NCBI GenBank assembly: GCA_965247145.1
Contig: CBDFGH010000006.1
Coordinates: forward strand, 104,778-168,777
DNA from: Rickettsiales bacterium
Lineage (GTDB): Bacteria > Pseudomonadota > Alphaproteobacteria > Rickettsiales > JAIXRX01
Direction of reading: 5' to 3'
Length of the DNA stretch: 64,000 nucleotides
Shown: positions 2,753 through 63,186 of the stretch, in pieces
Position numbering within the stretch: position 1 is the stretch's first letter
Layout of the letters: the number at the start of each line of letters is the position of its first letter
Notes under the pieces: model-generated
Databases searched by the model: none
What the model was told of the DNA's origin: nothing
Seen by the model: the letters and a program-made list of their open reading frames with translations, nothing else
Translations under genes and position numbers: made by a program

Positions 2753-3121
2753 TTAATCCGGGCAGGCATCCGGGGGAGATAGCGGTTCCCTGTTCAACGT
2801 GGCCTGATTCCCCCGCACCTGCACCTGACCGAAGCTCGCGAAGCTGCCCGCTTTCTGCGCAGCCTTATTGCCGGTGACCTGGCCCAGCGGGATATCCAGC
2901 GAGACGGTCGGGTTTTCCAGTTGAGCGCTGGCGGCGGCGGGTTGGCCGAGATCGGCGGGCGCGAGGCGGTTGCCCGAGGCGTCGATCCCGCCTTGGTAGG
3001 CCACATCCGGCGCGGTGGTGGCGGCCACGCGGTCGCGGCAGGGGCGCACATCCACTCGGGTGGGGGTTTGTGCGCAGGCGAGGCCGGGGGCGATCAGCGC
3101 GGCGAGCAGCAGATATTTCAT
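2753..3121 (-). CDS. Hypothetical secreted protein (122 aa)
   Basis: I trimmed track ORF 2753..3574 to the internal ATG at 3121, which gives MKYLLLAALIAPGLACAQ, a signal peptide. Its start overlaps the upstream stop in an ATGA (3118-3121). Confidence 0.55.
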   Translation of the reverse strand: MKYLLLAALIAPGLACAQTPTRVDVRPCRDRVAATTAPDVAYQGGIDASGNRLAPADLGQPAAASAQLENPTVSLDIPLGQVTGNKAAQKAGSFASFGQVQVRGNQATLNREPLSPPDACPD

Positions 3122-3336
3122 AGCGGCGCTCCGTGGCGGTGCCAATAGACGACGAGGGCGGTGAGGCAGGCGGCGAGCAGCGTGTTGGCCACCAGTTTCC
3201 ACTTCAGATTCGCCCGTTTCGGCGCGCTCAGCGGCTGGCCGGGCACGGGGGCGTGGTCCCTCTCGAAACCGATGGACAGCCAGGGATACAAAGTGACGAA
3301 CCAGATGGTGACGAAGATGGCGGCGGTGAGGAGCAT
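3118..3336 (-). CDS. Hypothetical small membrane protein (72 aa, two hydrophobic helices)
   Basis: MLLTAAIFVTIWFVTLYPWL ... LVANTLLAACLTALVVYW. The stop is coupled to the next gene by an ATGA overlap. Confidence 0.5.
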   Translation of the reverse strand: MLLTAAIFVTIWFVTLYPWLSIGFERDHAPVPGQPLSAPKRANLKWKLVANTLLAACLTALVVYWHRHGAPL

Positions 3337-3478
3337 GATGCTTGATCGTTCCGTGGGTTAGAGAGCCAGAGCAGCGGCGGCTGTCATAAAAGCTTAACAC
3401 TGGCGAGACGTCGCCCGCGTTATACTGCAAGGGTACTCTTCTGCCCGCTTTTCCGCCAGTCACACTTTTCATGCAGCG

Positions 3479-7821: not shown

Positions 7822-8986
7822 TCACGCATCCACCAGCAAAATCTGCAGTTCCGGCGCGAGTTCGTCGAGGATGCCGTGCGGGTCGTCCAGGCGGGTGGTG
7901 AGGGTTTGGACGGCGGCGGCGCCCATGGCCACCCCAAGTGCGGCGGCGCGCGGCAGCGGGAAGCCGCGCAGATAGCCCGCCAGGAATCCGGCGAAGCTCG
8001 CATCCCCCGCCCCGGTGGGGGTTGGTGATCCGGTCTTTCGGCACATGCATCACGCTCACATGATAGGCGCGTTCGGGCATCACGATGATCGCGCCTTCGT
8101 CTCCGCGCGTGATGAAGGCGCAGGGCGGGTCTTCGGTTTCCAGGTCGCGCGCCAGCATCGCTTCCCGCTGCAAGGTCAGGTCGAGTTGCAGATCGGCGAT
8201 GGTTTTCTGCAAGGTCTGGCCGGAGCCATAGATCTCGCGCAGTTCCGATTCGTTGCCCAGAATCAGTTGCGCGCGGCTGCGGATGAGCGCGCGCACCTGC
8301 TCGCGGTGCGCCTCCGGCAGCGGGCGGCGGGTGGGCAAGGTTAGCCACAGATCGCAATGATATTCTTCCGAAAGACGCAGTAATTTTTCCGGCACGTCGC
8401 GGCTGAATTTATTGAAGGTGCTGGCGGCGAACAGCACCACGTCCGAGGCGTGGATCAGCATATCGGGGATCATCTCGGCGCTTAGCCAGCGGCGCGCATG
8501 CCCGTCATCCAGCGTGATGGTGCGGCTTTGACCGTTTCCGTCCACCAACACGCAGGCGGTGGCGTGGGTGGGCAGCACCATTTCACCCGCCTCGTTGGTA
8601 ATCTCGGGGTTGGGCAACAAGGGTGGTTCGATGAGGAACACACCTGCTTTGTGATAAGAATCGCGGATCGCCGCGCTGTGGGACGAATCGCCGATGATGC
8701 CGAGCAATTGGCATTCCGCACGCTCCGGCAGCAGGGAAGCGAGCGTGTAAAGCGTATTGCCTGCGCTCCCGCCCGCGCAGGCGATGATATGGGCGGGATC
8801 GAGCGCATCGAGGAATTGCTGGCGCATTTCGGGGAAAGGGGAAATATCGCGCTTGGCGCCGGGGGGCAGGTTGAAATCCGCCAGCAGCGGCTTCAGTTTC
8901 GGCTGATCGGCCTCCCGCGTGACGAGATCGATGCTGTGATAATCCAGCGAGAAAATACGGGTGCGGCGGGGCGCGCTACGGGGCAT
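7822..8986 (-). pseudogene. PfkB-family carbohydrate/nucleoside kinase, disrupted by a 1-nt frameshift
   Basis: The N-terminal 320 or so aa lie in the frame of track ORF 7736..8986. The PfkB signature-2 region (PTGAGDASFAGFLAGYL) lies in the frame of ORF 7822..8046. The frames meet at a G5 run on the plus strand at 8017-8021. After the shift the long ORF reads R/P/G-rich nonsense. Confidence 0.7.
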
Positions 8987-10186: not shown

Positions 10187-11992
10187 ATGACCACGCCGCT
10201 TTCCCATATCCGCAATTTCTCCATCATCGCCCATATCGATCACGGCAAATCCACCTTGGCGGACCGGCTGATCGAGCAAGCGGGCGATATCGAGATGCGG
10301 GATATGAAGTCCCAGCATCTGGACAGTATGGATATTGAGCGCGAGCGCGGCATCACCATCAAAGCCCAGACCGTGCGCCTGAAATACAAAGCGAAAAATG
10401 GCGAAACCTACATCTACAACCTGATGGACACACCCGGCCACGTCGATTTCGCCTATGAAGTCAGCCGTTCTCTGGCCGCTTGCGAAGGCTCCCTGCTGGT
10501 GGTGGATGCTTCCCAAGGCGTGGAAGCGCAGACGCTGGCGAACGTCTATCAGGCCATCGACAACAACCACGAAATCATCCCCGTCCTCAATAAGATCGAC
10601 CTCCCCGCCGCCGAGCCGGAAAGGGTGAAGGAGCAGATCGAGGACGTGATCGGGCTGGATTGTTCGGATGCGCTGGAGGTTTCGGCCAAAGCGGGCATCG
10701 GCATCGCCGAGCTGCTCGAAGCCATTTCCGTGCGCCTGCCCGCCCCCAAAGGCGTGGCGGATTCCACGCTGAAAGCCATGCTGGTGGATAGCTGGTACGA
10801 TGCCTATCTCGGCGTCGTCATCCTGGTCCGCATCGTGGATGGGGTGTTGAAAAAAGGCATGAAGATCCGTTTCATGTCGAACGGCCATTCCTATCATGTC
10901 GAACAGACCGGAGTCTTCACGCCGAAGAAAGTGCCGGTCGATACGTTGGGACCGGGCGAGGTTGGCTACATCATCTGCGGTATTAAGCTGGTGGCGGATT
11001 GCCGGGTGGGCGACACGGTGACGGACGACCGCAACCCCTGCACCGAATCCCTCCCCGGCTTCCGCCCCGCCATGCCTGTGGTCTTCTGCGGGTTGTATCC
11101 GACGGACGCCTCCGATTTCGAAAATCTGCGCGATTCCCTGGGTAAACTGCAATTGAACGATGCGAGCTTCGGCTATGAGACCGAAAGCAGCTCCGCGCTC
11201 GGCTTCGGTTTCCGCTGCGGCTTCCTCGGGCTGCTGCATCTGGAAATCATCCAGGAACGCCTCGAGCGCGAATTCAACCTCGACCTCATCACCACGGCCC
11301 CCAGCGTGGTCTATAAACTCACCATGACCAATGGCGAGGAGATGGAGCTGCACAACCCGGCAGACATGCCGGAAGTCACCCGCATCGAAGCCATGTATGA
11401 GCCCTGGATCAAGGCGACCGTGATGGTGCCGGACGAATTCCTCGGCAACGTGCTTTCCCTGTGCCAGGAAAAGCGCGGCGAGCAGGTCGATCTGACGTAT
11501 GTGGGCAATCGCGCCATGGTGGTGTATCGCCTGCCGCTGAACGAAGTGGTGTATGATTTCTACGACCGTCTCAAATCCGGCACCAAAGGATATGCCAGCT
11601 TCGATTACGCGATGGACGGTTATGCCGAATCCGACCTCGTGAAACTCTCCATCCTGGTCAATGCCGAGCCGGTGGACGCCCTCTCCATCATCGTCCACAA
11701 ATCCCAGGCCGATTACCGGGGCCGCGGGCTGTGCGAGCGCCTCAAGAAACTCATCCCCCGCCAGATGTTCCAGATCGCCATCCAAGCCGCCATCGGCGGC
11801 AAAGTCATCGCCCGCGAAACCATCAGCGCCCTGCGCAAGGACGTGACGGCGAAATGCTACGGCGGGGATATCTCGCGGAAGCGGAAGCTGCTGGATAAGC
11901 AGAAGGAAGGGAAGAAGAAGATGCGTTCAGTGGGGAATGTGGATATTCCGAAAAGCGCATTCATCGCGGCGTTGAAGATGGATAACAGCTAA
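10187..11992 (+). CDS. lepA: Elongation factor 4
   Basis: 601 aa with GTPase motifs AHIDHGKST and DTPGHVDF. It has the LepA-specific C-terminal domain. Confidence 0.97.
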
Positions 11993-12054: not shown

Positions 12055-13692
12055 ATGCATCCCATCGAAGAAAAGATCGACCGACTCGTTCGCGCCGTGC
12101 GGGCTGGGGAGATAAAGAAAAGCGAAGCCATCCTCGCGGTGACGTCGGAGGAAATGAACCTGTTCTGCCATCCGCAAATCGCACGCCAGGGCGATGAGCG
12201 AATGTTCGCCGATCATTTACTTGCGGACTCTCCCGGCACTTCCTCCGGTATCGCGGTATTCGATATGAAAGAGGCTGCCGCGCGCACCGCACGCGGCGAG
12301 CAGGTCATCCTCATTCGCCCCGAGACGGGCGCGGAAGATACGGCCATCATGAAAAAATGCGCCGGTGTCGTCACTCTAGGCGGCGGGCGCACATCGCATT
12401 CCAAAGTGGTCAGCCGAGGGGCGGGCATCCCCTGCGTCAGTTCGCCCGAGATGCGCATCGCGCAGGGCCAGCTCATCTGTGGCGAGCAAATCATCGAGGC
12501 GGGCGCGCATATCACGATCGATGGCACCAGCGGCGCGATCTACCATGGCGAAGTTCCCTCCTACACCCTCATGCCGACGAAAGCGCTGAATACACTGCTT
12601 TCCTGGTCGGACGAAATTGCGCGCATCAAGACCTATGTAATTCTGGATAGTAAGGAAGAGCTCGAAAAAGCCCTTCGCGAGGGCGCAAAAGGCATCAGTA
12701 TTCTGCGCACGGAACATATGTTCTTCGCACCCGAACGCTTGGCGGTTTTTCAAAGCCTGCTTTTGACGCCGAAAGACAAACCGGAATGGCGGGCGCCGAT
12801 GCTGGTGGAACTGCAGGAAGCCCAGCGCCAAGATTTCACCGAGATCTTTGCCAGCGCCATGAAAAGCCAGCAGGATTTCCCGGTCAATATCCGTCTGCTC
12901 GACCCGCCGCAGCACGAATTCATGCCGCAACCGGCGCATTGGGATGAATTTCTGGAACGCAGCCATCTGGGTATCGACCGCGCCGAACTGGCCGAACGCA
13001 TTGGGCGGTTGAAAGAAAAAAATCCCATGTTCGGCAAGCGCGGCGTGCGCCTCCTGCTCGACCAGCCCGACCTCATGCGCATGCAATTGCGGGCCATTTT
13101 CGAGGCGGCAGCCGCCACGCGGAGCAAGTTCGGCCAAGCACCCAATCTCGGTATCTGCATCCCGATGACGGAAAATGCGCAGCAATTGAAAGACTGCCGC
13201 GAAATCATCCAGGGCGCACGCGCGCAGGTGGCGCAGGAATTGGGCTTGAGCCCGGCGGATTTGCCGTATTTCTACAGTACGATGATCGAGACGCCAGCTG
13301 CCGCCATCAACGCGGAAAACCTCGCCAAACTTTGCGACAGCTTCAATTTCGGTGGGCACGACATGGCGGCCAGCGTGCATGCGGCGGACCGCGATTCCTG
13401 CGACCATCCGGAAATCTTCGCTGCGCTTTCGGATGAAACGCTGTATATGGCGAAAATCGCTGCGAGCGGCGGCAAGGCAGGCAACCGGCGACTCAACTTC
13501 GCTTTCTGCGGCGATCAGGGAAGAGACCCCGATTCCCTCACCCGCATCCTGAGCGAGATCAAACAGGTCGATAGCGTTACCGCCAATGCGCATGACGTGA
13601 TGCGCACGCGCCTCATCGCCGCGCAGGCCACGATCAAAGCGCGTGGGCATGCATTGAGCATCAACCGCACCACCGGCCCAAGCCTGCTTTAG
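12055..13692 (+). CDS. Pyruvate phosphate dikinase-like protein lacking the N-terminal ATP-grasp domain (545 aa)
   Basis: The swivel phospho-His domain (GGGRTSHSKVVSRGAGIPCV) is followed by a PPDK-type PEP/pyruvate barrel (LRTEHMFF, RLLDPPQHEFMP, NPMFGKRGVRLL, MIETPAAA, FCGDQGRDP). The alignable region starts at the PPDK linker (SEAILAVTSEEMNLFCHP). Only 62 nt separate the gene from lepA, so no nucleotide-binding domain is encoded upstream. Confidence 0.8.
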   Translation: MHPIEEKIDRLVRAVRAGEIKKSEAILAVTSEEMNLFCHPQIARQGDERMFADHLLADSPGTSSGIAVFDMKEAAARTARGEQVILIRPETGAEDTAIMKKCAGVVTLGGGRTSHSKVVSRGAGIPCVSSPEMRIAQGQLICGEQIIEAGAHITIDGTSGAIYHGEVPSYTLMPTKALNTLLSWSDEIARIKTYVILDSKEELEKALREGAKGISILRTEHMFFAPERLAVFQSLLLTPKDKPEWRAPMLVELQEAQRQDFTEIFASAMKSQQDFPVNIRLLDPPQHEFMPQPAHWDEFLERSHLGIDRAELAERIGRLKEKNPMFGKRGVRLLLDQPDLMRMQLRAIFEAAAATRSKFGQAPNLGICIPMTENAQQLKDCREIIQGARAQVAQELGLSPADLPYFYSTMIETPAAAINAENLAKLCDSFNFGGHDMAASVHAADRDSCDHPEIFAALSDETLYMAKIAASGGKAGNRRLNFAFCGDQGRDPDSLTRILSEIKQVDSVTANAHDVMRTRLIAAQATIKARGHALSINRTTGPSLL

Positions 13693-15238: not shown

Positions 15239-15346
15239 CGAATGGCGCTCCTGCGGCAGATGTGTGGTGAGTTGAGGTTAATGCAAATAGTCACGCTTCG
15301 CCACCGCTGGCTTGCGTGGCTTGCGTGACCCGCGAAACCGCATCCC

Positions 15347-15440
15347 CCTCATCCCACTCCGCACTTGATGCGGAGTATGGCCACTTGCGTGGGGGAGAGG
15401 ACCGGGCGGCACTCCGCATCAAGTGCGGAGTGGGATGAGG
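15347..15440. repeat. Compound palindrome: perfect 30-nt inverted repeat, each arm itself a hairpin
   Basis: CCTCATCCCACTCCGCACTTGATGCGGAGT (15347-15376) is the exact reverse complement of 15411-15440. A single-arm relative (CCCACTCCGCATCGCGTGCGGAGCGGG) is at 32908-32934. Confidence 0.9.
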
Positions 15441-15485
15441 TGGCGTGGATGTGCAAGAGTGGGTAGTAGAGGTGGCTATGCCGCG

Positions 15486-18400
15486 TTAGCTCAAGGCCTG
15501 CGCCGCCGCCACGCCGGGGAGTTTTTCCAGTTGCGCGAGATCGGCTTGGCTCAAGCGATAGGTGCCGGGCAACATGACCACGGCTTGCGATGCTTCGCCC
15601 ACCGCCAGGCTGAAGCTCACGCGCACACCTTGTCCGTTGGGTTCACCCAGCAAGGTCTTCAGCGGCGCCAGCGCCCGCATGTCCGAAAGCGTCACGCGCC
15701 AATGACCGCTGGGTCCGGCCTTGGCGCGGCCTTCGTATTTGGCCAAAGTCGCTTCCATCGACATGATCTGCCGCGCCACGATACGCGCACCGGAATCATC
15801 CACCTTGCCTTCGGCTTTGATGAGCAGCAGCTGGCCGTTTTCCAGCAGACCCTGCTGCGCGTTCAGGATCTGCTCGTCGTAGATCGCGATCTCGTACAGC
15901 CCCGTGGGGTCGGAGAGCGAGAGGAAGGCGAAGCGCCCGCGCTCGCTGGCGCGGATTTTCCTGCCCATGACGATGCCTGCCAGCGTGATCGGCGTGTAGG
16001 CGGGCCCGAGCGCATCCATCAACGCGGCATAATGCGTGACACCCTGCCCCACCAGCGCTTCCTGATAATCGCTGATCGGGTGAGCGGAGAGGTAGAAACC
16101 GATGGCCTCGAATTCCTGCTCGAGCTTTTCCAGATGTTTCCAATCCTCGCCGCCCGGCATGTTCGGGCGGGGCGCGGCGATGGCGGATTCGCTGGGTCCG
16201 CCGAAGAGACTGCTCTGCTGGCTTTCCCGGTCGCGCGCCATGGACTGGCCGTGGGCCAGCAGCATCTCCAGCGCCAGCATCAGCTGCTTGCGGTTGGGGA
16301 AGAGGGAGTCGAACGCGCCGGCTTTGATGAGATGTTCCATCTGGCGGCGGTTGAGAATCTTCGGGTCGGCGCGCTCGACGAAGTCGAACATGTCGCGGAA
16401 GAGGCCGTTGGCGCGTCGCTCCTCGACCAGCGCCCGCATCGCCTCCGCGCCCACGTTGCGCACGGCGGCAAGGCCGTAGCGGATGGCGCCAGCAGACTCC
16501 TTCTCCCTCTGGGAGACGGCTGGGATGAGGGCCTCACCACCCGCAACTGAACCAGCGGATAAACCCTCATCCAACCTTCTCCCAGGGGGAGAAGGCTTTT
16601 CACCCGCAAACAATACATCGCTCTTATTCACATCCGGCGGCAGCACGGCGATGCCGAATTTGTTCGCTTCCTCGCGGAACATGGCGAGCTTGTCCGTGTT
16701 ATGCGTATCGTAATTCATCGAAGCCGCGAGGAATTCGACCGTGTGGTTCGCCTTCAGATACGCCGTCTGGTAAGCGATCAACGCATAAGCCGCCGCGTGG
16801 CTTTTGTTGAAACCATATTCCGCGAATTTCGCCATCAAATCGAAAATCTGCGTGGCGATATGTTTGGGCACTTTGCGCGCGGTGGCGCCCGCCACGAAGC
16901 TTTCGCGCTGCGCTTCCATCTCGGCGCGGATCTTTTTACCCATCGCCCGGCGCAGCAGATCCGCCTGTGCCAGCGAATAGCCGGACAACTTCTGCGCGAT
17001 CTGCATCACCTGTTCCTGGTAGATGATGACGCCGTAGGTTTCTTTCAGGATTTCTTCCACATCCGGGTGCGGGTATTGTGGCACTTCCAGGCCGTGCTTG
17101 CGGGCGATGTAGGTGGGGATGTTGCTCATCGGGCCCGGCCGATACAGTGAAACGAGCGCGATGATGTCTTCGATATTATCCGGCTTTAGCTTGCGCAGCG
17201 TGTCGCGCATCCCGGCGGATTCGAGCTGGAAGACGCCCGCCGCCTCGCCTCGGCCCAAGAGTTCATAGGTTTTCTTATCGCCTTCGGGCAGTTTCAACAA
17301 ATCGAGCGCAGGGCCACCGACTTGGGCAATCATCTTCACCGCCTGATGCAGCACGCTCAGCGTTTTCAGCCCCAGAAAATCGAACTTCACCAGCCCGGCC
17401 AGCTCGGCGTATTTCATCGAATATTGCACCACCGGCATATCCGAATTCGGATCGCGGTACATCGGCACCAATTGGCTTAAGGGCCGATCCGCGATGACGA
17501 CGCCTGCGGCATGCATGGAAGCATGGCGGTAGAGACCTTCGAGCTTCAGCGCGATGTCCACCATGTGGCTCACCTGCTCGTCCTTCTTGATCGCCTCTTT
17601 CAGGTTGGGCTCGATCTCGATGGCTTCGGCGAGTTTGGTGGGGTGGGCCGGGTTGTTCGGCACCATTTTGCACACGCGATCGACCAGACCATACGGCAAT
17701 TGCAGCACGCGCCCCACATCGCGCAGGGCGGCGCGGGCCTGCAGGGTGCCGAAGGTGATGATCTGCGCCACCTGGTCGCGGCCATATTTTTGCTGGACGT
17801 ATTGAATGACCTCGCCCCGCCGGTCCTGACAGAAATCGACGTCGAAATCCGGCATGCTCACGCGCTCGGGGTTCAGGAAACGCTCGAACAGCAAGCCGTA
17901 GCGCAACGGGTCGAGATCCGTGATCAGCAGCGACCAGGCGACCAGCGACCCCGCCCCCGAACCCCGCCCGGGGCCCACGGGAATATCGTGCTCTTTGCTC
18001 CAGGTGATGAAGTCGGAGACGATGAGGAAGTAGCCGGGGAACTTCATCTTGCAGATGACGTCGAGCTCGAAGGCGAGGCGTTTGGTGTATTCCTCGCGCA
18101 ACTCGGCCTTGCGCGTCGCGTCCATCTCAGCGTTGAAGACATAATGCTCCAGGCGGTATTCCAGGCCTTCGGCGGCGCGGCGGCGGAGCTGGTCGTCTTC
18201 CGTGCCGCCTTCGCCGAAGTTGGGAAGGATGGGGTCGCGCTTGGCCGCCATCACCGCGCAGCGCTGCGCGATGGCAAGAGTATTGGCCACGGCCTCGGGC
18301 AGATCGGCGAAGATTTCGTGCATTTCCTTGGGGGATTTGAAGCGGAAATGCGGGTTCAGCCGCGCACGATCCCCCTCCCCCAGATAGCGCCCCTGCGCGA

Positions 18401-19163
18401 TGCACATCAGCGCGTCATGCGCTTCGAACATATCTTTATCGAAAAACTCTACATCGTTGGTCGCGACGATGGGCAGACGGTGGCTCTGCGCCAGGGCCAG
18501 GAATTTCGGCTCCAACGTTTTTTCTTCCGCCAGCTGGTGGCGCATCAGTTCGATGTAGAGCCGGTCGGGGAAATGGGTCTGCAGCATGCCCAGCAATTCC
18601 TCGGCGGAAGCATCCTGCCCCGCCAGCAACCGCTGGCCCAGGCCACCATAACGCCCGGCAGTGAGGCACAGCAATCCATCGCAGCGCCCTTCCAACACGC
18701 CATAATCCAGCACCGGGCCTTGCGCACCGGATTCGACGGGGGCGAGATAGACGTCGCTCGCCAGCGAAAGCAGATTGGTCAGACCCGCTTCGTCCTTGGC
18801 GATCAGCAGCAATTGTTCGGGCTTCGGGCCCTGCCCGCGGCGCTGCTCCGCGCCCGGCGGCTGGAAATGCAGCAGCACGCCCAGGATCGGCTGCACGCCG
18901 GAGCCCGCCGCTTCGGCCGAGAATTCCAGGCTGCCGAACAGATTGTTGGTATCCGAAATCCCCAAAGCGGGCATGCCCGCCGCCACCGCCTTTTTCACCA
19001 GGGGTTTGATCTGGCACGCGCCTTCCAGCAGCGAATAGGCCGTATGCACGCGCAAATGCACGAATTGCGGCTGGCCGGTGCGGCTGGTGGGAAGGGGTGG
19101 GAGCATGGAATTATAGGTAGCGAAGAAGGGCGGCGGCGGCAAGGGCGGCGCATGTAATGACAT
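15486..19163 (-). CDS. dnaE: DNA polymerase III alpha subunit
   Basis: PHP domain start FVHLRVHTAYSLLEGA and polymerase core throughout. The start is uncertain: GTG 19175, ATG 19163 or ATG 19106. Confidence 0.95.
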   Translation of the reverse strand: MSLHAPPLPPPPFFATYNSMLPPLPTSRTGQPQFVHLRVHTAYSLLEGACQIKPLVKKAVAAGMPALGISDTNNLFGSLEFSAEAAGSGVQPILGVLLHFQPPGAEQRRGQGPKPEQLLLIAKDEAGLTNLLSLASDVYLAPVESGAQGPVLDYGVLEGRCDGLLCLTAGRYGGLGQRLLAGQDASAEELLGMLQTHFPDRLYIELMRHQLAEEKTLEPKFLALAQSHRLPIVATNDVEFFDKDMFEAHDALMCIAQGRYLGEGDRARLNPHFRFKSPKEMHEIFADLPEAVANTLAIAQRCAVMAAKRDPILPNFGEGGTEDDQLRRRAAEGLEYRLEHYVFNAEMDATRKAELREEYTKRLAFELDVICKMKFPGYFLIVSDFITWSKEHDIPVGPGRGSGAGSLVAWSLLITDLDPLRYGLLFERFLNPERVSMPDFDVDFCQDRRGEVIQYVQQKYGRDQVAQIITFGTLQARAALRDVGRVLQLPYGLVDRVCKMVPNNPAHPTKLAEAIEIEPNLKEAIKKDEQVSHMVDIALKLEGLYRHASMHAAGVVIADRPLSQLVPMYRDPNSDMPVVQYSMKYAELAGLVKFDFLGLKTLSVLHQAVKMIAQVGGPALDLLKLPEGDKKTYELLGRGEAAGVFQLESAGMRDTLRKLKPDNIEDIIALVSLYRPGPMSNIPTYIARKHGLEVPQYPHPDVEEILKETYGVIIYQEQVMQIAQKLSGYSLAQADLLRRAMGKKIRAEMEAQRESFVAGATARKVPKHIATQIFDLMAKFAEYGFNKSHAAAYALIAYQTAYLKANHTVEFLAASMNYDTHNTDKLAMFREEANKFGIAVLPPDVNKSDVLFAGEKPSPPGRRLDEGLSAGSVAGGEALIPAVSQREKESAGAIRYGLAAVRNVGAEAMRALVEERRANGLFRDMFDFVERADPKILNRRQMEHLIKAGAFDSLFPNRKQLMLALEMLLAHGQSMARDRESQQSSLFGGPSESAIAAPRPNMPGGEDWKHLEKLEQEFEAIGFYLSAHPISDYQEALVGQGVTHYAALMDALGPAYTPITLAGIVMGRKIRASERGRFAFLSLSDPTGLYEIAIYDEQILNAQQGLLENGQLLLIKAEGKVDDSGARIVARQIMSMEATLAKYEGRAKAGPSGHWRVTLSDMRALAPLKTLLGEPNGQGVRVSFSLAVGEASQAVVMLPGTYRLSQADLAQLEKLPGVAAAQALS
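16494..16601. repeat. 108-nt palindromic repeat element inserted in frame inside dnaE
   Basis: Contains hairpins TCTCCCTCTGGGAGA (16502-16516), GGATGAGGG/CCCTCATCC (16523-16531 / 16564-16572) and CCTTCTCCCAGGGGGAGAAGG (16575-16595). It has the same architecture as the intergenic element at 30361-30483. It translates as EKPSPPGRRLDEGLSAGSVAGGEALIPAVSQREKES, just before the conserved GAIRYGLAAV. Confidence 0.75.
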
Positions 19164-19260
19164 TGCGGAACACACCTATTTTTACACGGTGTCACATTCC
19201 GTCGTCATCATTCCGTCACAAAGCAGGAGTATAAATAAGATTGATCATACGGAGAGATCT

Positions 19261-37714: not shown

Positions 37715-37734
37715 TGGAAGATGATATGAAAAAA

Positions 37735-37860
37735 CCCTCCCCCCTCGAAGGGGGGAGGCCGGGAGGGGGTGGAGCCGCGAGCAACAGAGCCAGCCGCCCC
37801 ACCCCCACCCTACCCTTCGTCGCCCCTGCGACTCAGCCCCTCAAGGGGAAGGGAATCATC
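37735..37860. repeat. G/C-rich palindromic repeat block lying between uppS and the conserved part of cdsA
   Basis: CCCTCCCCCCTCGAAGGGGGGAGG (37735-37758), the CCTGCGACT core (37825-37833) and CCCCTCAAGGGG (37834-37853 region). Confidence 0.7.
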
Positions 37861-37898
37861 CACGTTCCAGCCTGAAATCGCGCATCCTCTCCGCGCTG

Positions 37899-46448: not shown

Positions 46449-46452
46449 CTTC

Positions 46453-46540
46453 GTCATCCTGCGGCCGCGCAGCGGAGCGCAGGATGACTTTCTGCCATAA
46501 CACCGAGATCCTGTGCTGCCCTCCGGGCCCGCAGGATGAC
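46453..46540. repeat. REP-like palindromes of the GTCATCCTGCG...CGCAGGATGAC family
   Basis: Hairpin at 46453-46488 plus a half-copy GCAGGATGAC at 31-40 of line 46501 (46531-46540). The same arms occur at 60772-60851. Confidence 0.7.
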
Positions 46541-46543
46541 GAG

Positions 46544-47407: not shown

Positions 47408-47427
47408 GTCCGCATAATCTTCGCTTT

Positions 47428-47504
47428 GTCATTCCAGCGAAAGCTGGAACCCAGTCTTTACCCACCATTCAAAATTACTGAATCCCAGCTTTCGCTGGGA
47501 TGAC
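47428..47504. repeat. REP-like inverted repeat (GTCATTCCAGCGAAAGCTGGAACCCAG / CTGAATCCCAGCTTTCGCTGGGATGAC)
   Basis: Arms at 47428-47454 and 47478-47504, directly after lpxI. Confidence 0.8.
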
Positions 47505-47524
47505 AGCATTTGTCGACCACCCAT

Positions 47525-49925: not shown

Positions 49926-50321
49926 ATGAGTACGACATTCAGCCCACTGTTACCCTTCCCTCTGAAATCGGTGCTTGGGCACCAGCCCAAAGCCTATCCT
50001 TCGGGTGTCGGCCCATCGGGTGTCGGCCCATCGGGTGTCGGCCCATCGGGTATTGACAGAGTGAAATTTGAGATTCAGTTGCCTGAGCGCCAAGCGTTGC
50101 AATGGTGCGAAACCATGAACAGCATCCTGCCAGATTTGGCCAAGCCCCTTTTGGGAGACGGCGATGCAATATATGTAGACATCGACCTCCATAAGCTGGC
50201 GTTGGAACTTCGCGATCCCAAACAACAATTCAGTGCCTCTGAAACGCAATATTTGAAGGTGCTTCAGTCGGCCTTGCTGGTGTCCCTGCCGGAAAAAGTC
50301 AAAGAACAAAAAACTCGGTAG
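49926..50321 (+). CDS. Hypothetical protein (131 aa) containing a PSGVG tandem repeat
   Basis: ORF between lpxB and the end of recG. I recognise no family. Confidence 0.5.
   Translation: MSTTFSPLLPFPLKSVLGHQPKAYPSGVGPSGVGPSGVGPSGIDRVKFEIQLPERQALQWCETMNSILPDLAKPLLGDGDAIYVDIDLHKLALELRDPKQQFSASETQYLKVLQSALLVSLPEKVKEQKTR
50001..50051 (+). repeat. Perfect 15-bp tandem repeat, 3.4 copies (TCGGGTGTCGGCCCA)
   Basis: Read directly: units at 50001-50015, 50016-50030 and 50031-50045, plus a partial unit at 50046-50051. In frame it encodes (SGVGP)n. Confidence 0.95.
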
Positions 50322-52525: not shown

Positions 52526-52542
52526 AGGTAGTTCCAACTGAC

Positions 52543-52647
52543 TCCCTCTCCCTAGAAGGGGGAGGGTTGGGAGGGGGTGACTACCCACAAGCGCTGGCGT
52601 TCGTTGCGGCTCACCCTCTCCCTGCCCTCTCCCTTCTCAGGGAGAGG
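52543..52647. repeat. G/C-rich palindromic repeat block upstream of recG
   Basis: CTCCCTCTCCCTAGAAGGGGGAGGG (52543-52567) and CCTCTCCCTTCTCAGGGAGAGG (52626-52647). Confidence 0.6.
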
Positions 52648-52718
52648 AGATACTTCTATGTGGCACCCCGGATGCGATTTGTCATCGTTTCGTCATACGA
52701 TTTGGGTAGAATACGGGC

Positions 52719-60870: not shown

Positions 60871-63186
60871 ATGAATGCCCCCGCCCGCACCGAATCCGCG
60901 AAACTCTACGACCAGATCGACGGCTCCGCCGCCATGGCGAAGGAGTTTGGATTGAAGGAGGAGGAATATGCGAAAGTCCTGAGCATCCTCGGGCGCACGC
61001 CGAACATGACCGAACTGGGCATCTTCTCGGTGATGTGGAGCGAGCATTGCTCGTATAAAACCACGCGCAAGCACCTCTCCAAACTCCCCACCAAGGCCCC
61101 TTGGGTCATCTGCGGCCCGGGCGAGAATGCGGGCGTGATCGATATCGGGGACGGTCAGGCGGCGATCTTCAAGATGGAGTCGCACAACCACCCCAGCTAC
61201 ATCGAACCCTACCAGGGTGCGGCCACCGGCGTCGGCGGCATTCTGCGCGACGTCTTCACCATGGGCGCACGGCCCGTGGCGAATCTGAACGCGCTGCGCT
61301 TCGGCTCGCCGGATCATGCGAAAACCCGCCACCTCGTTTCCGGCGTCGTCGCTGGCATCGGCGGCTACGGGAATTGCGTGGGCGTGCCCACCGTGGGCGG
61401 CGAATGCAGCTTCCATGAAAGCTACAACGGCAACATCCTGGTCAACGCCATGAATGTCGGCGTGGCGGATGCGGATAAGATTTTCTATTCCACGGCGGCG
61501 GGCATCGGCAATCCGGTCATCTATGTCGGCAGCAAAACCGGGCGGGACGGCATACATGGCGCGACCATGGCCAGCACAGAATTCACCGAAGGCATGGAAG
61601 AAAAGCGCCCCACCGTGCAGGTGGGCGACCCCTTCACCGAAAAGCTGCTGATCGAAGCCTGCCTGGAATTGATGGCGACAGACGCCATCATCGCCATCCA
61701 GGACATGGGCGCGGCGGGCCTCACCTCCTCCAGCCTCGAGATGGCGGGCAAAGGCGAACTCGGCATCGAACTCGCGATGGACAAAGTTCCCGCCCGCGAG
61801 ACGGGCATGACCCCGTATGAATTCATGCTCTCCGAAAGCCAGGAACGCATGCTGATGATTCTGAAGCCGGAAAAGCAGGAAATGGCGCGCGCGATCTTCG
61901 AGAAATGGGGCCTGGATTTCGCCACCATCGGCACGCTCACCGACACCGGTCGCCTCGTCCTCACCATGCATGGCGAGATCGCCTGCGACATTCCCGTAGG
62001 CCCACTCAGCCACGACGCGCCGATTTACGACCGTCCGTGGGTCATCGAAACCTGGGAGACTAGGCAGTCGCAAGTCGCAAGCCGCAAGTCGCAAGGTAGT
62101 GATGATGCGAAACCAAATGACAAAGACACCCAAGCCCCCCCTGCGACTTGCGACTTGCGACTTGCGACTACCAGCGCCCCGATCATCGACAGCCTCAAAA
62201 CCCTCATCGCCTGCCCCGATCTCGCCAGCAAACGCTGGATCTGGGAGCAGTATGACCGCATGGTCGGCAACGATACGGTGGCCAGCTCCGGCAGCGCGGA
62301 CGCCGCCATCGTGCGCGTGCACGGCACCGGCAAAGCGCTGGCGATGACCACCGATTGCACCCCGCGCTATGTCGCGGCCGACCCCCGCCTGGGCGGCATG
62401 CAGGCCGTCGTCGAATCCTGGCGCAACCTCACCGCCGTGGGCGCAACCCCGCTCGCCATCACCAACTGCCTGAATTTCGGCAACCCCGAAAAACCCGAAG
62501 TGATGGGCCAGATCGTCGGCGCGATCGAAGGCATCGCCGAAGCCTGCCGCGCGCTGGACTACCCCGTCGTCTCCGGCAACGTCTCGCTCTACAACGACAC
62601 CAACGGCCAGAGCGTGCAGCCCACCCCGGCCATCGGCGGTGTCGGCGTATTGAAAGACGTGACGAAACGCACCGGCAACGCCGTGACCGAAGAAGGCCTC
62701 GCGCTGATCCTCCTCGGTGAAACCCAAGGCCATCTCGGCAGCAGCCTCTATCTCCGCGAAATCCAGCGCCGCGAAGACGGCGCGCCCCCGCCCATCGACC
62801 TCGCGCAGGAACGCAAAACCGGCGATTTCGTGCGCGCCCAGATCGTCGCGGGCCACGTCGCCGCCTGCCATGATGTGAGCGACGGCGGACTTCTCGTCGC
62901 CATCGCCGAAATGCTCATGCCCCACGGCATCGGCGCGCATGTCACGCTGCCCGAAGGCCCGGCCCACGCCATAGCGTTCGGCGAAGACCAGGGCCGTTAC
63001 ATTCTGGCCGTGAAAGACGCCAACGTGCTTCTTGCCACTGCCCAATCCGCCGACATCTCCGCCGTCCAACTCGGCACCACCAGCGGCACTGAACTCGGCG
63101 TCGAAGACCATGGCGAGATCAATGTTAAATCCCTCCGCAGCGCCAACGAAGCCTGGCTGCCGGAATATATGGCGGGGGCGAAGTGA
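60871..63186 (+). CDS. purL: Phosphoribosylformylglycinamidine synthase subunit PurL
   Basis: WSEHCSYK and [25 protein letters not shown] motifs. I chose the ATG at 60871, after AAGAGGA, because the track start at 60847 lies in the repeat. Confidence 0.95.
62063..62172. repeat. In-frame hairpin element inside purL built from heptamer microsatellites
   Basis: The left arm, GGCAGTCGCAAGTCGCAAGCCGCAAGTCGCAAGG (62063-62096), is four GTCGCAA-type heptamers. The right arm, CCCTGCGACTTGCGACTTGCGACTTGCGACTACC (62139-62172), is its reverse complement at 31 of 34 positions. The loop is 42 nt. Confidence 0.9.

Follow-up and report, generated by a model that had tools for sequence, protein, structure and literature searches.

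The Rickettsia palindromic elements (RPEs), RPE-1 to RPE-10 (Ogata et al. 2000, 2002), lie both between genes and in frame in genes, according to the summaries in two papers (PMC10969869, PMC3733652). REPs have been reported in frame in the DnaE of R. conorii (RC1211, residues 853-861) and in dnaE2 of O. terrae (Di Nocera 2013, PMC3733652). In-frame palindromic repeats in essential genes are known already from the RPEs and from these REPs in DnaE and DnaE2, and given the published R. conorii and O. terrae cases the bare phenomenon is not new. Here we describe an element of this kind in a window of 64 kb, that is, the whole 64,000-nt stretch of DNA that was analysed (Rickettsiales bacterium, assembly GCA_965247145.1, contig CBDFGH010000006.1, positions 104,778 to 168,777). 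The palindromic repeat element lies at 16494-16601 on the minus strand, in frame in dnaE (15486-19175, minus strand), the gene for DNA polymerase III alpha, and is a copy of a family dispersed in this genome. We consider it highly likely that it is a non-autonomous palindromic repeat, formed by two inverted BoxC/PIT/TM modules round a 32-nt spacer and tolerated in a permissive loop of DnaE; a spread of the family that is linked to DUF559 nucleases would be the less supported part of this explanation.

The element's building unit corresponds to the published BoxC/PIT/TM motif (Bachellier in the 1990s; Hoyne and Maher 2000; Holder et al. 2015, PMC4666352). The published consensus of BoxC/PIT/TM_ECO is CCCTCNCCC, N3-6, GGGNGAGGG, N3 and once more GGGNGAGGG (PMC4666352); in the form common to this motif and the window modules the second loop is N2-3, and the third block mirrors the purine stem. 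E. coli MG1655 holds 23 TM_ECO copies, five pairs of which are inverted doublets, as exemplified by TM_ECO 1+2 at 164547-164631; more than 260 genomes contain the motif, which has been linked to loci that underwent rearrangement and in E. coli is reported as always intergenic (PMC4666352). An intrastrand triplex in vitro has been shown by circular dichroism and NMR for E. coli oligonucleotides alone, and the motifs stall polymerases. Mobility genes were never found near the E. coli motifs (Holder et al., PMC4666352). Two further systems invite comparison: the REP and REPIN repeats with their RAYT (Nunvar 2010; Bertels and Rainey 2011, PMC3116915, PMC3337134; Di Nocera 2013, PMC3733652), and the bacterial MITEs, miniature transposable elements with inverted repeats, such as Correia, ERIC, RUP and Nezha (reviewed in PMC10969869).

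A dispersed repeat family with one copy in dnaE

The open reading frame (ORF) list and the translation give dnaE as an intact frame of 1229 codons, open along its whole length with the insert included, with a third-position GC content (GC3) of 0.79. A public protein, P0001, is 100% identical to the DnaE of the window over its 1206 aa, which start 23 codons later, at 19106; its Pfam domains are PHP, DNA_pol3_alpha, finger and HHH_6. The element contributes 36 codons to this frame (EKPSPP...REKES, residues 859-894 of 1229 aa). Depending on how it is delimited it measures 105-108 bases, that is 35-36 extra codons in an otherwise intact dnaE, and the hairpin proper occupies 16499-16595. Both the ORF translation and a direct reading of the sequence bear out the initial observation, made in a sequence-only reading, of a 108-nt in-frame segment before GAIRYGLAAV. 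Across the junction the DnaE peptide is PDVNKSDVLFAG-EKPSPPGRRLDEGLSAGSVAGGEALIPAVSQREKES-AGAIRYGLAAV, the gene reading at 16494-16601 is GEKPSPPGRRLDEGLSAGSVAGGEALIPAVSQREKESAGAIRYGLAAV, and translation would yield insert-derived peptides such as LDEGLSAGSVAGGEALIPAVSQR.

Five copies of the family lie in the window, and on a gene map based on GC3 the dnaE copy is the only intragenic one. The intergenic copies are found on the plus strand at 30361-30483, immediately preceded by the stop codon that ends the gene at 27633-30356, at 37735-37855 (by profile and alignment) and at 52544-52650 (by profile, alignment and the hairpin-plus-arm pattern); a composite copy without assigned strand, at 655-760, consists of two hairpins joined by GGCTTTAAGCC, with the arms outside. 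In the four full copies, all of them inverted doublets, the parts follow each other in the same way: hairpin, arm, spacer, inverted arm, hairpin. An nhmmer profile was built from the intergenic stretches 30352-30495, 37726-37865 and 52535-52660 alone, with the dnaE copy excluded. This profile matches the dnaE segment on the plus strand at 16494-16602, over model positions 5-121, with an E-value of 3.9e-12, and on the opposite strand with one of 2e-4, so that an orientation is preferred. A single-sequence search matches 30411-30489 (E 4.8e-7), and the hairpin-plus-arm pattern has four matches in the window against none in 100 shuffles. A scan of the whole window with Rfam at gathering thresholds gave no hits. 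The claim that the dnaE segment is built from the hairpin units of 30361-30483 is thus confirmed by the profile match and the shared architecture, and the four related copies within the window dispose of the concern that the element might have no kin beyond chance similarity. We conclude that the dnaE insert is a true copy of a family dispersed in this genome.

Could the segment instead have expanded in place, by template switching or slippage, as a lineage-specific loop that resembles the intergenic hairpins through its G/C-rich composition? Such an origin would fit the variation of loop length across bacteria and the non-palindromic long inserts of three more distant DnaEs (L141, L185 and L191), but it does not account for a full-length match to a profile from which the dnaE copy was excluded, nor for the preferred orientation of that match. 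The order of parts is moreover that of the intergenic copies, and one module is near-identical to a module in an unrelated phylum (locus L075, below). We regard expansion in place as very improbable. Chance compositional similarity to the intergenic hairpins was considered separately, and is ruled out by the profile E-value together with the common architecture.

The length of the copy in dnaE, 108 nt, keeps the polymerase in frame, and on this point the sequence-only reading was correct; divisibility by three is, however, not a property of the family. The other copies measure 123, 121, 107 and 106 nt, each copy has two or three of its six frames open (three in the dnaE copy), and the intergenic copies contain stops in most frames. 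From the varied lengths of these copies and the open frame in dnaE it follows that the multiple of three reflects a filter on survivors.

Read directly on the plus strand, the dnaE element has the order hairpin, arm, 32-nt spacer, arm, hairpin. Module 1, of BoxC/TM type (16499-16531, plus strand), is made up of the pyrimidine-stem hairpin CCTTCTCCC-TCT-GGGAGACGG at 16499-16519, the bases CTG and the purine arm GGATGAGGG at 16523-16531; 8 of the 9 arm positions match the purine stem in mirror order, and the form is that of the TM_ECO consensus. The spacer (16532-16563, no strand) is the loop region of the long hairpin and in alignment weakly resembles the spacers of the copies at 30361 and 37735 (..GC.A..GA.CCAGC..). 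Module 2 (16564-16595) is inverted and reads CCTTCTCCC-CCT-GGGAGAAGG-TT-GGATGAGGG on the minus strand; on the plus strand the arm CCCTCATCC at 16564-16572 precedes the hairpin CCTTCTCCC-AGG-GGGAGAAGG at 16575-16595. Stem and arm of this module mirror each other at all 9 positions by direct reading, and the pattern matches at 16564-16591. The element folds into a single hairpin of 97 nt at -81.8 kcal/mol (z -7.7), compared with a shuffle mean of -50.2, and 0 of 200 shuffles fold as well. It is polypurine/polypyrimidine in composition, with 59% GC, and its alphaproteobacterial host has 60% GC. The insert has a GC3 of 0.56 vs 0.79 in the remaining dnaE; it has therefore not acquired the codon bias of the gene. 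The arm CCCTCATCC is also reused in the outer arms, CCCTCATCCCAC...GTGGGATGAGG, of a 33-nt inverted repeat at 15344-15443 (97% complementary, 34-nt loop), 43 nt downstream of the dnaE stop codon, which may be a terminator or another type of repeat.

The three blocks are seen in both dnaE modules and in each of the intergenic ones, with one stem position off the published consensus, and in every module of the window stem and arm match in mirror symmetry at 8-9 of 9 positions, as a triplex of G.G, A.A and T.A triads requires. Judged by this form, each half of the dnaE element is a BoxC/PIT/TM motif, and the element is an inverted doublet. Among the matches listed, the family-level pattern occurs in Alpha-, Gamma- and Deltaproteobacteria, Chloroflexota, Planctomycetota, Nitrospirota, Omnitrophota, candidate phyla and others, and the profile derived from the window finds full doublets in many of these pattern-matched loci, in many phyla. 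The family thus has in common with the published motif the three blocks, the mirroring arm, the inverted doublets and the spread across phyla. The E. coli motif, in contrast, is reported as always intergenic and unlinked to mobility genes, whereas the doublet described here lies inside an essential gene and is probably translated; and elsewhere in our analysis the motifs bracket DUF559 nuclease genes, unlike in the E. coli report. What appears to be new is that a motif earlier described as strictly intergenic is here, to judge from its place in the reading frame, transcribed and probably translated in an essential gene.

How does the element compare with the RPEs? The analogy suggested by the first inspection of the sequence holds for the mechanism, a palindromic repeat kept in frame in a permissive loop, and does not extend to family membership. 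Palindromes of ~100-150 nt, intergenic next to in-frame copies and a peptide added to a tolerant region are common to both, and the window holds a 97-nt palindrome, five copies and an in-frame copy in an intact dnaE. RPEs, however, are A/T-rich repeats of Rickettsia, whereas we find G/C-rich polypurine/polypyrimidine triplex modules in a non-Rickettsia host, with one of the five window copies intragenic. By composition and host, membership of the element in an RPE family is very unlikely.

The insertion site in the polymerase

Alignment to solved structures matches the flanks of the insert to E. coli alpha until residue 818 and again from 828, and to the alpha of Thermus aquaticus (Taq) until 879 and again from 886. 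It follows that the insert replaces the beta-hairpin turn just before the first helix-hairpin-helix (HhH) motif: the site is a two-residue turn in the fingers domain, before this DNA-binding motif. E. coli alpha is short here, as had been noted, with 9 residues (819-827) vs 43 in this protein. An AlphaFold model of DnaE residues 600-1030, made with 50 aligned sequences, has a mean pLDDT (AlphaFold's confidence score) of 88.4; the flanks reach 94-97, and insert residues 274-291 (fragment numbering, as below) stay below 50, bracketed by strands 258-260 and 298-300. Mapping the insertion on a structure had been proposed as a check, and the structure alignment together with the low AlphaFold confidence fits a flexible surface loop. 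The insert is probably translated as such a loop of ~35 residues, which the polymerase would tolerate and which presumably has no function for it.

Is the insert present in the mature protein at all? Ribosomal bypassing or removal at the RNA or protein level could in principle eliminate it, or dnaE could be decaying with a second copy as backup. The hairpin is of high stability in the mRNA, AAG codons stand before it and, in frame, near its 3' end, and the 160-residue insert in DnaE or PriA of relatives that bear DUF559 (below) looks burdensome. A stop codon after the take-off site is missing, however, the ORF is intact throughout with its GC3 of 0.79, and the frame is kept, which would be needless if the segment were removed; intein motifs are absent, and 36 residues are too few for an intein. 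Bypassing, removal or decay therefore strike us as highly unlikely. An intein as such was rejected on the sequence, which runs from EKPSPP to REKES and then into AGAIRY over 36 residues and has neither an N-terminal Cys/Ser/Thr, nor a C-terminal His-Asn followed by Cys/Ser/Thr, nor splicing blocks.

Inserts at this turn are not confined to the DnaE of the window. Among 104 parsed alphaproteobacterial DnaEs, 57 have a minimal loop and 16, this one included, carry inserts of ~17-39 residues exactly at this turn. Most long inserts in an alignment of 118 DnaEs are located in this loop, with minor sites after core columns 289-290, 587-589 and 1121. Among the inserts whose DNA was retrieved, all of them in-frame hairpins, those of the module type found in the window, G/C-rich, are present in L002 (fold z -7.9) and L004 (z -5.0); the insert of L005 is of GGATTC type (z -12.1), that of L006 of GTGTCAGG type (z -5.4) and that of L007 of GTCATGAGTCA type, with a weaker fold (z -2.0). 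As background, a metagenome scan with a DnaE loop alignment gave a sample of 61 more distant DnaEs, mostly of 41-56% identity: five have long inserts, of which two are palindromic (L160, z -5.4; L207, z -5.5, a CTGTAGCGGCG...CGCCGCTACAG REP) and three, L141, L185 and L191, are not. Palindromic in-frame inserts have thus arisen independently in this loop in at least seven other lineages. Their families differ, and the inserts are repeats that recur elsewhere in the contigs of their own lineages. The family of L002, for instance, has six triplex-module doublets in 23.6 kb (copies noted at 2989-3092, 3332-3423, 10805-10907 and 12524-12616), two of them in a uracil-DNA glycosylase gene and two in dnaE, at different sites. 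With repeats so dense within its genes, L002, a metagenomic alphaproteobacterium, is reminiscent of Rickettsia.

Insertion targeted to the sequence of this loop was rejected, as the junctions are not alike in sequence and the families found there have no relation to each other. These same observations make a selection filter the simplest explanation: an extra loop is least harmful at this turn. The loop is the main permissive site in DnaE for repeat inserts, and we infer that in this essential protein, constrained in its other parts, no site is more permissive, so that an insert survives here. Because of this permissiveness, unrelated repeats, presumably moved by different mobilisation machineries, would have inserted at one position in other bacteria and been kept there. 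One novelty compared with earlier in-frame repeats lies in this convergence, one beta-hairpin turn of Pol III alpha being the main landing and survival site for unrelated repeat families. The turn could be used to engineer tags into DnaE, as a site that is permissive by nature, and the recurrent loop inserts call for caution in annotation and in dnaE-based phylogenies.

A repeat that is retained might also have been co-opted: the loop could modulate contacts with DNA or the clamp from its position beside the HhH motif, or the hairpin or triplex DNA could regulate dnaE expression or local replication. The loop stands directly before the HhH motif, the hairpin remains close to perfect, TM motifs can adopt a triplex in vitro and are known to stall polymerases, and inserts recur at this loop in many lineages. 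These inserts, however, share neither peptide nor DNA sequence between lineages, most relatives make do with the minimal two-residue turn, the AlphaFold model gives the insert no confident structure and GC3 reveals no adaptation at codon level. Taking both sides together, we consider co-option unlikely, and retain the explanation of a repeat tolerated in a permissive loop.

The closest relatives place the insertion within this lineage, of which few members have been sequenced. The best DnaE matches, the alphaproteobacterial proteins P0002 and P0043, share 72% identity with the window protein, and the next ones at most 64%. Their loops, VELQGPDKDA and VEMQPDGERA, respectively, are short and non-palindromic; the P0002 loop DNA (locus L001) has a fold z of +0.1, and such hairpins are absent from 23.5 kb of L001. 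The possibility that close relatives carry an equivalent segment devoid of palindromic structure can accordingly be set aside, and the short loops make the insert specific to this lineage.

Repeat-like sequence is also seen at other places. In L005, the GGATTC-type hairpin of the DnaE loop lies, in addition, within a gene for an FtsX/MacB-type permease (8454-8634). Secondary sites of DnaE (after core columns 289-290 and 1121; P0048, P0053, P0049, P0078, P0041) carry repeat-like peptides, namely SPSPLEGEG..., PPPWRGRVGVGG... and CHSREGGNL..., the last of which resembles CGTC-REP peptides of Rickettsia.

DUF559 nuclease genes beside the modules

What could have spread the repeat family? A candidate is suggested by the alphaproteobacterial DnaE P0097 (1315 aa), which has a DUF559 domain in this same loop. 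Its DNA (L208, 8446-9018) consists of hairpin and arm, a complete in-frame DUF559 ORF, and arm and hairpin, and adds ~160 residues; the layout matches the element of the window, except that an ORF stands where the spacer would be. Since the reading frame through the P0097 hairpin differs, the event was independent of the insertion in the window. The module-flanked gene belongs to DUF559 (PF04480, E 5e-42), a Vsr-fold nuclease. A second cassette of module, DUF559 and module lies in frame in PriA of a Gastranaerophilales locus (L041, 1774-4404), between the 3' DNA-binding and helicase domains. The L041 cassette is located just before the Walker A region of the PriA helicase, and its modules are G/C-rich in an A/T-rich host DNA.

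Sampling in both directions points to the same association. In 120 genome loci selected by the motif there are six DUF559 genes, those of L041 and L075 among them, all 14-56 nt from a motif, and none was found in 535 kb of control DnaE loci. A module by a DUF559 gene of Nitrospinaceae (L075), CCTTCTCCCCGTGGGAGAAGGTTGGATGAGGG, differs from dnaE module 2 by one loop base over 32 nt. For the reverse sample, 28 DUF559 genes were drawn from IMG/VR whether or not the motif was nearby; here the density of pyrimidine-stem hairpins is 2.10/kb up to 200 nt from the ORF ends vs 0.26/kb elsewhere in those loci (binomial p 1.5e-10), and control DnaE loci have 0.015/kb. Such hairpins are present in 15 of the 28 loci, two-sided and in inverted orientation in nine, often with triplex arms. 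Pro-rich C-terminal tails end 72 of 119 close DUF559 homologues, and many read PSPQPSP..GEG, which corresponds to a translated module. E. coli itself offers an example: in K-12, a degenerate BoxC-like module extends across the stop codon of ycjD, annotated as DUF559 (L237, 7195-7440; 1,351,194-1,351,439), and the published TM_ECO no. 9 (1,351,204-1,351,239) lies 165 nt downstream of ycjD, beside a second, incomplete copy of the 3' end of that gene. This adjacency is absent from the triplex-motif paper (PMC4666352), and in the open-access literature that we searched we found no report that links DUF559 to repeats.

The resemblance to REP/REPIN and RAYT is one of organization. Short structured units, single or as inverted doublets, are mostly intergenic and flank one small enzyme gene in both systems, with occasional in-frame copies in genes of DNA replication and repair. 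The window modules, however, have neither the GTAG nor the CGTC head of REPs at their ends, the flanked gene encodes a DUF559 Vsr-fold nuclease and not a HUH Y1 transposase, and any mobilisation of the triplex modules is putative. DUF559 has been placed in one group with Vsr and I-Bth0305I, a homing endonuclease of Vsr fold (PDB 3r3p, PMC3424549), which makes a nuclease role in the spread or maintenance of the motif plausible. Like inteins and homing cassettes, P0097 (DnaE) and L041 (PriA) place nuclease ORFs in frame in essential replication proteins, and the Vsr-type fold is known from I-Bth0305I to support homing. In contrast to inteins, the cassettes occupy variable loops rather than conserved active-site motifs, and the window element has no ORF; given that the DUF559 cassettes lack splicing motifs, the insert is presumably retained in the protein. 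With MITEs the element shares a small, non-coding, hairpin-forming body with terminal inverted repeats, a longer relative that bears an ORF and the possibility of in-frame fusion; the inverted modules form its ends, and the intergenic copies have no coding capacity. The differences from MITEs are that no target-site duplication was seen and that the partner ORF, a nuclease, is not a recognised transposase.

Based on these observations, we tentatively suggest that BoxC/PIT/TM repeats may be non-autonomous partners of DUF559 nucleases (YcjD-type, Vsr-fold), a second REPIN/RAYT-like system that is built on a PD-(D/E)xK nuclease and extends across many phyla, whose ORF-bearing form would sit in frame and unspliced in DnaE and PriA and of which the dnaE insert would be an empty shell; we hold this to be possible, with the balance tilting slightly the other way. 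The origin of this repeat family has been an open question for ~30 years, and DUF559, including E. coli ycjD, would supply a candidate for its enzyme; for DUF559, a domain family of very large size, the link likewise offers a candidate function.

The course of events may then have been as follows. A module consists of a C/T-stem hairpin and, after it, a G-rich arm that mirrors the stem. A non-autonomous copy of the repeat would have landed in the dnaE turn, where its length in multiples of three and its open frame allowed it to persist, and the extra residues would be carried along as a flexible loop of no benefit to the polymerase. In the less supported part of the model, a DUF559 nuclease (Vsr-fold, PD-(D/E)xK), with a gene that the modules typically bracket, would spread the repeat family, or co-evolve with it, in a relation resembling that of the RAYT transposase to REP/REPIN, and the dnaE element would be the empty-shell form of a module-DUF559-module cassette. 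Several points weigh against this explanation as a whole. Target-site duplications or direct repeats were not seen at the ends of the dnaE copy or the intergenic copies, and we know of no transposition or homing intermediate for these motifs. A DUF559 gene was not found within the 64-kb window, and the orientation of the modules varies, with arms that point outward in most DUF559 loci and inward in P0097, and some loci one-sided. The link to DUF559 is one of association, seen in the arrangement of sequences, and Holder et al. found no mobility genes. As the loop borders the HhH DNA-binding motif, an effect of the insert on polymerase function is possible. Finally, the databases hold no relative closer than 72% identity, so the insertion can be dated no finer.

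Other repeats in the window

A second, unrelated family in the window comprises CGTC-headed REP hairpins (CGTCATCCCGGCGAAAGCCGGGAC, TGTCATTCCAGCGAAAGCTGGAA) at 31649-31760, 32981-33004, 46451-46542 and 47427-47505. They are of the CGTC-1 type of Di Nocera et al. (PMC3733652), which is translated as VIPAKAGI in Rickettsia proteins. At 62063-62172 lies an inverted repeat of tandem heptamers (GTCGCAA/GCAAGTC), with arms of 34 nt and 91% complementarity, and at 49998-50051 a tandem 15-nt repeat (CCATCGGGTGTCGGC) is present in more than three copies, apparently between genes.

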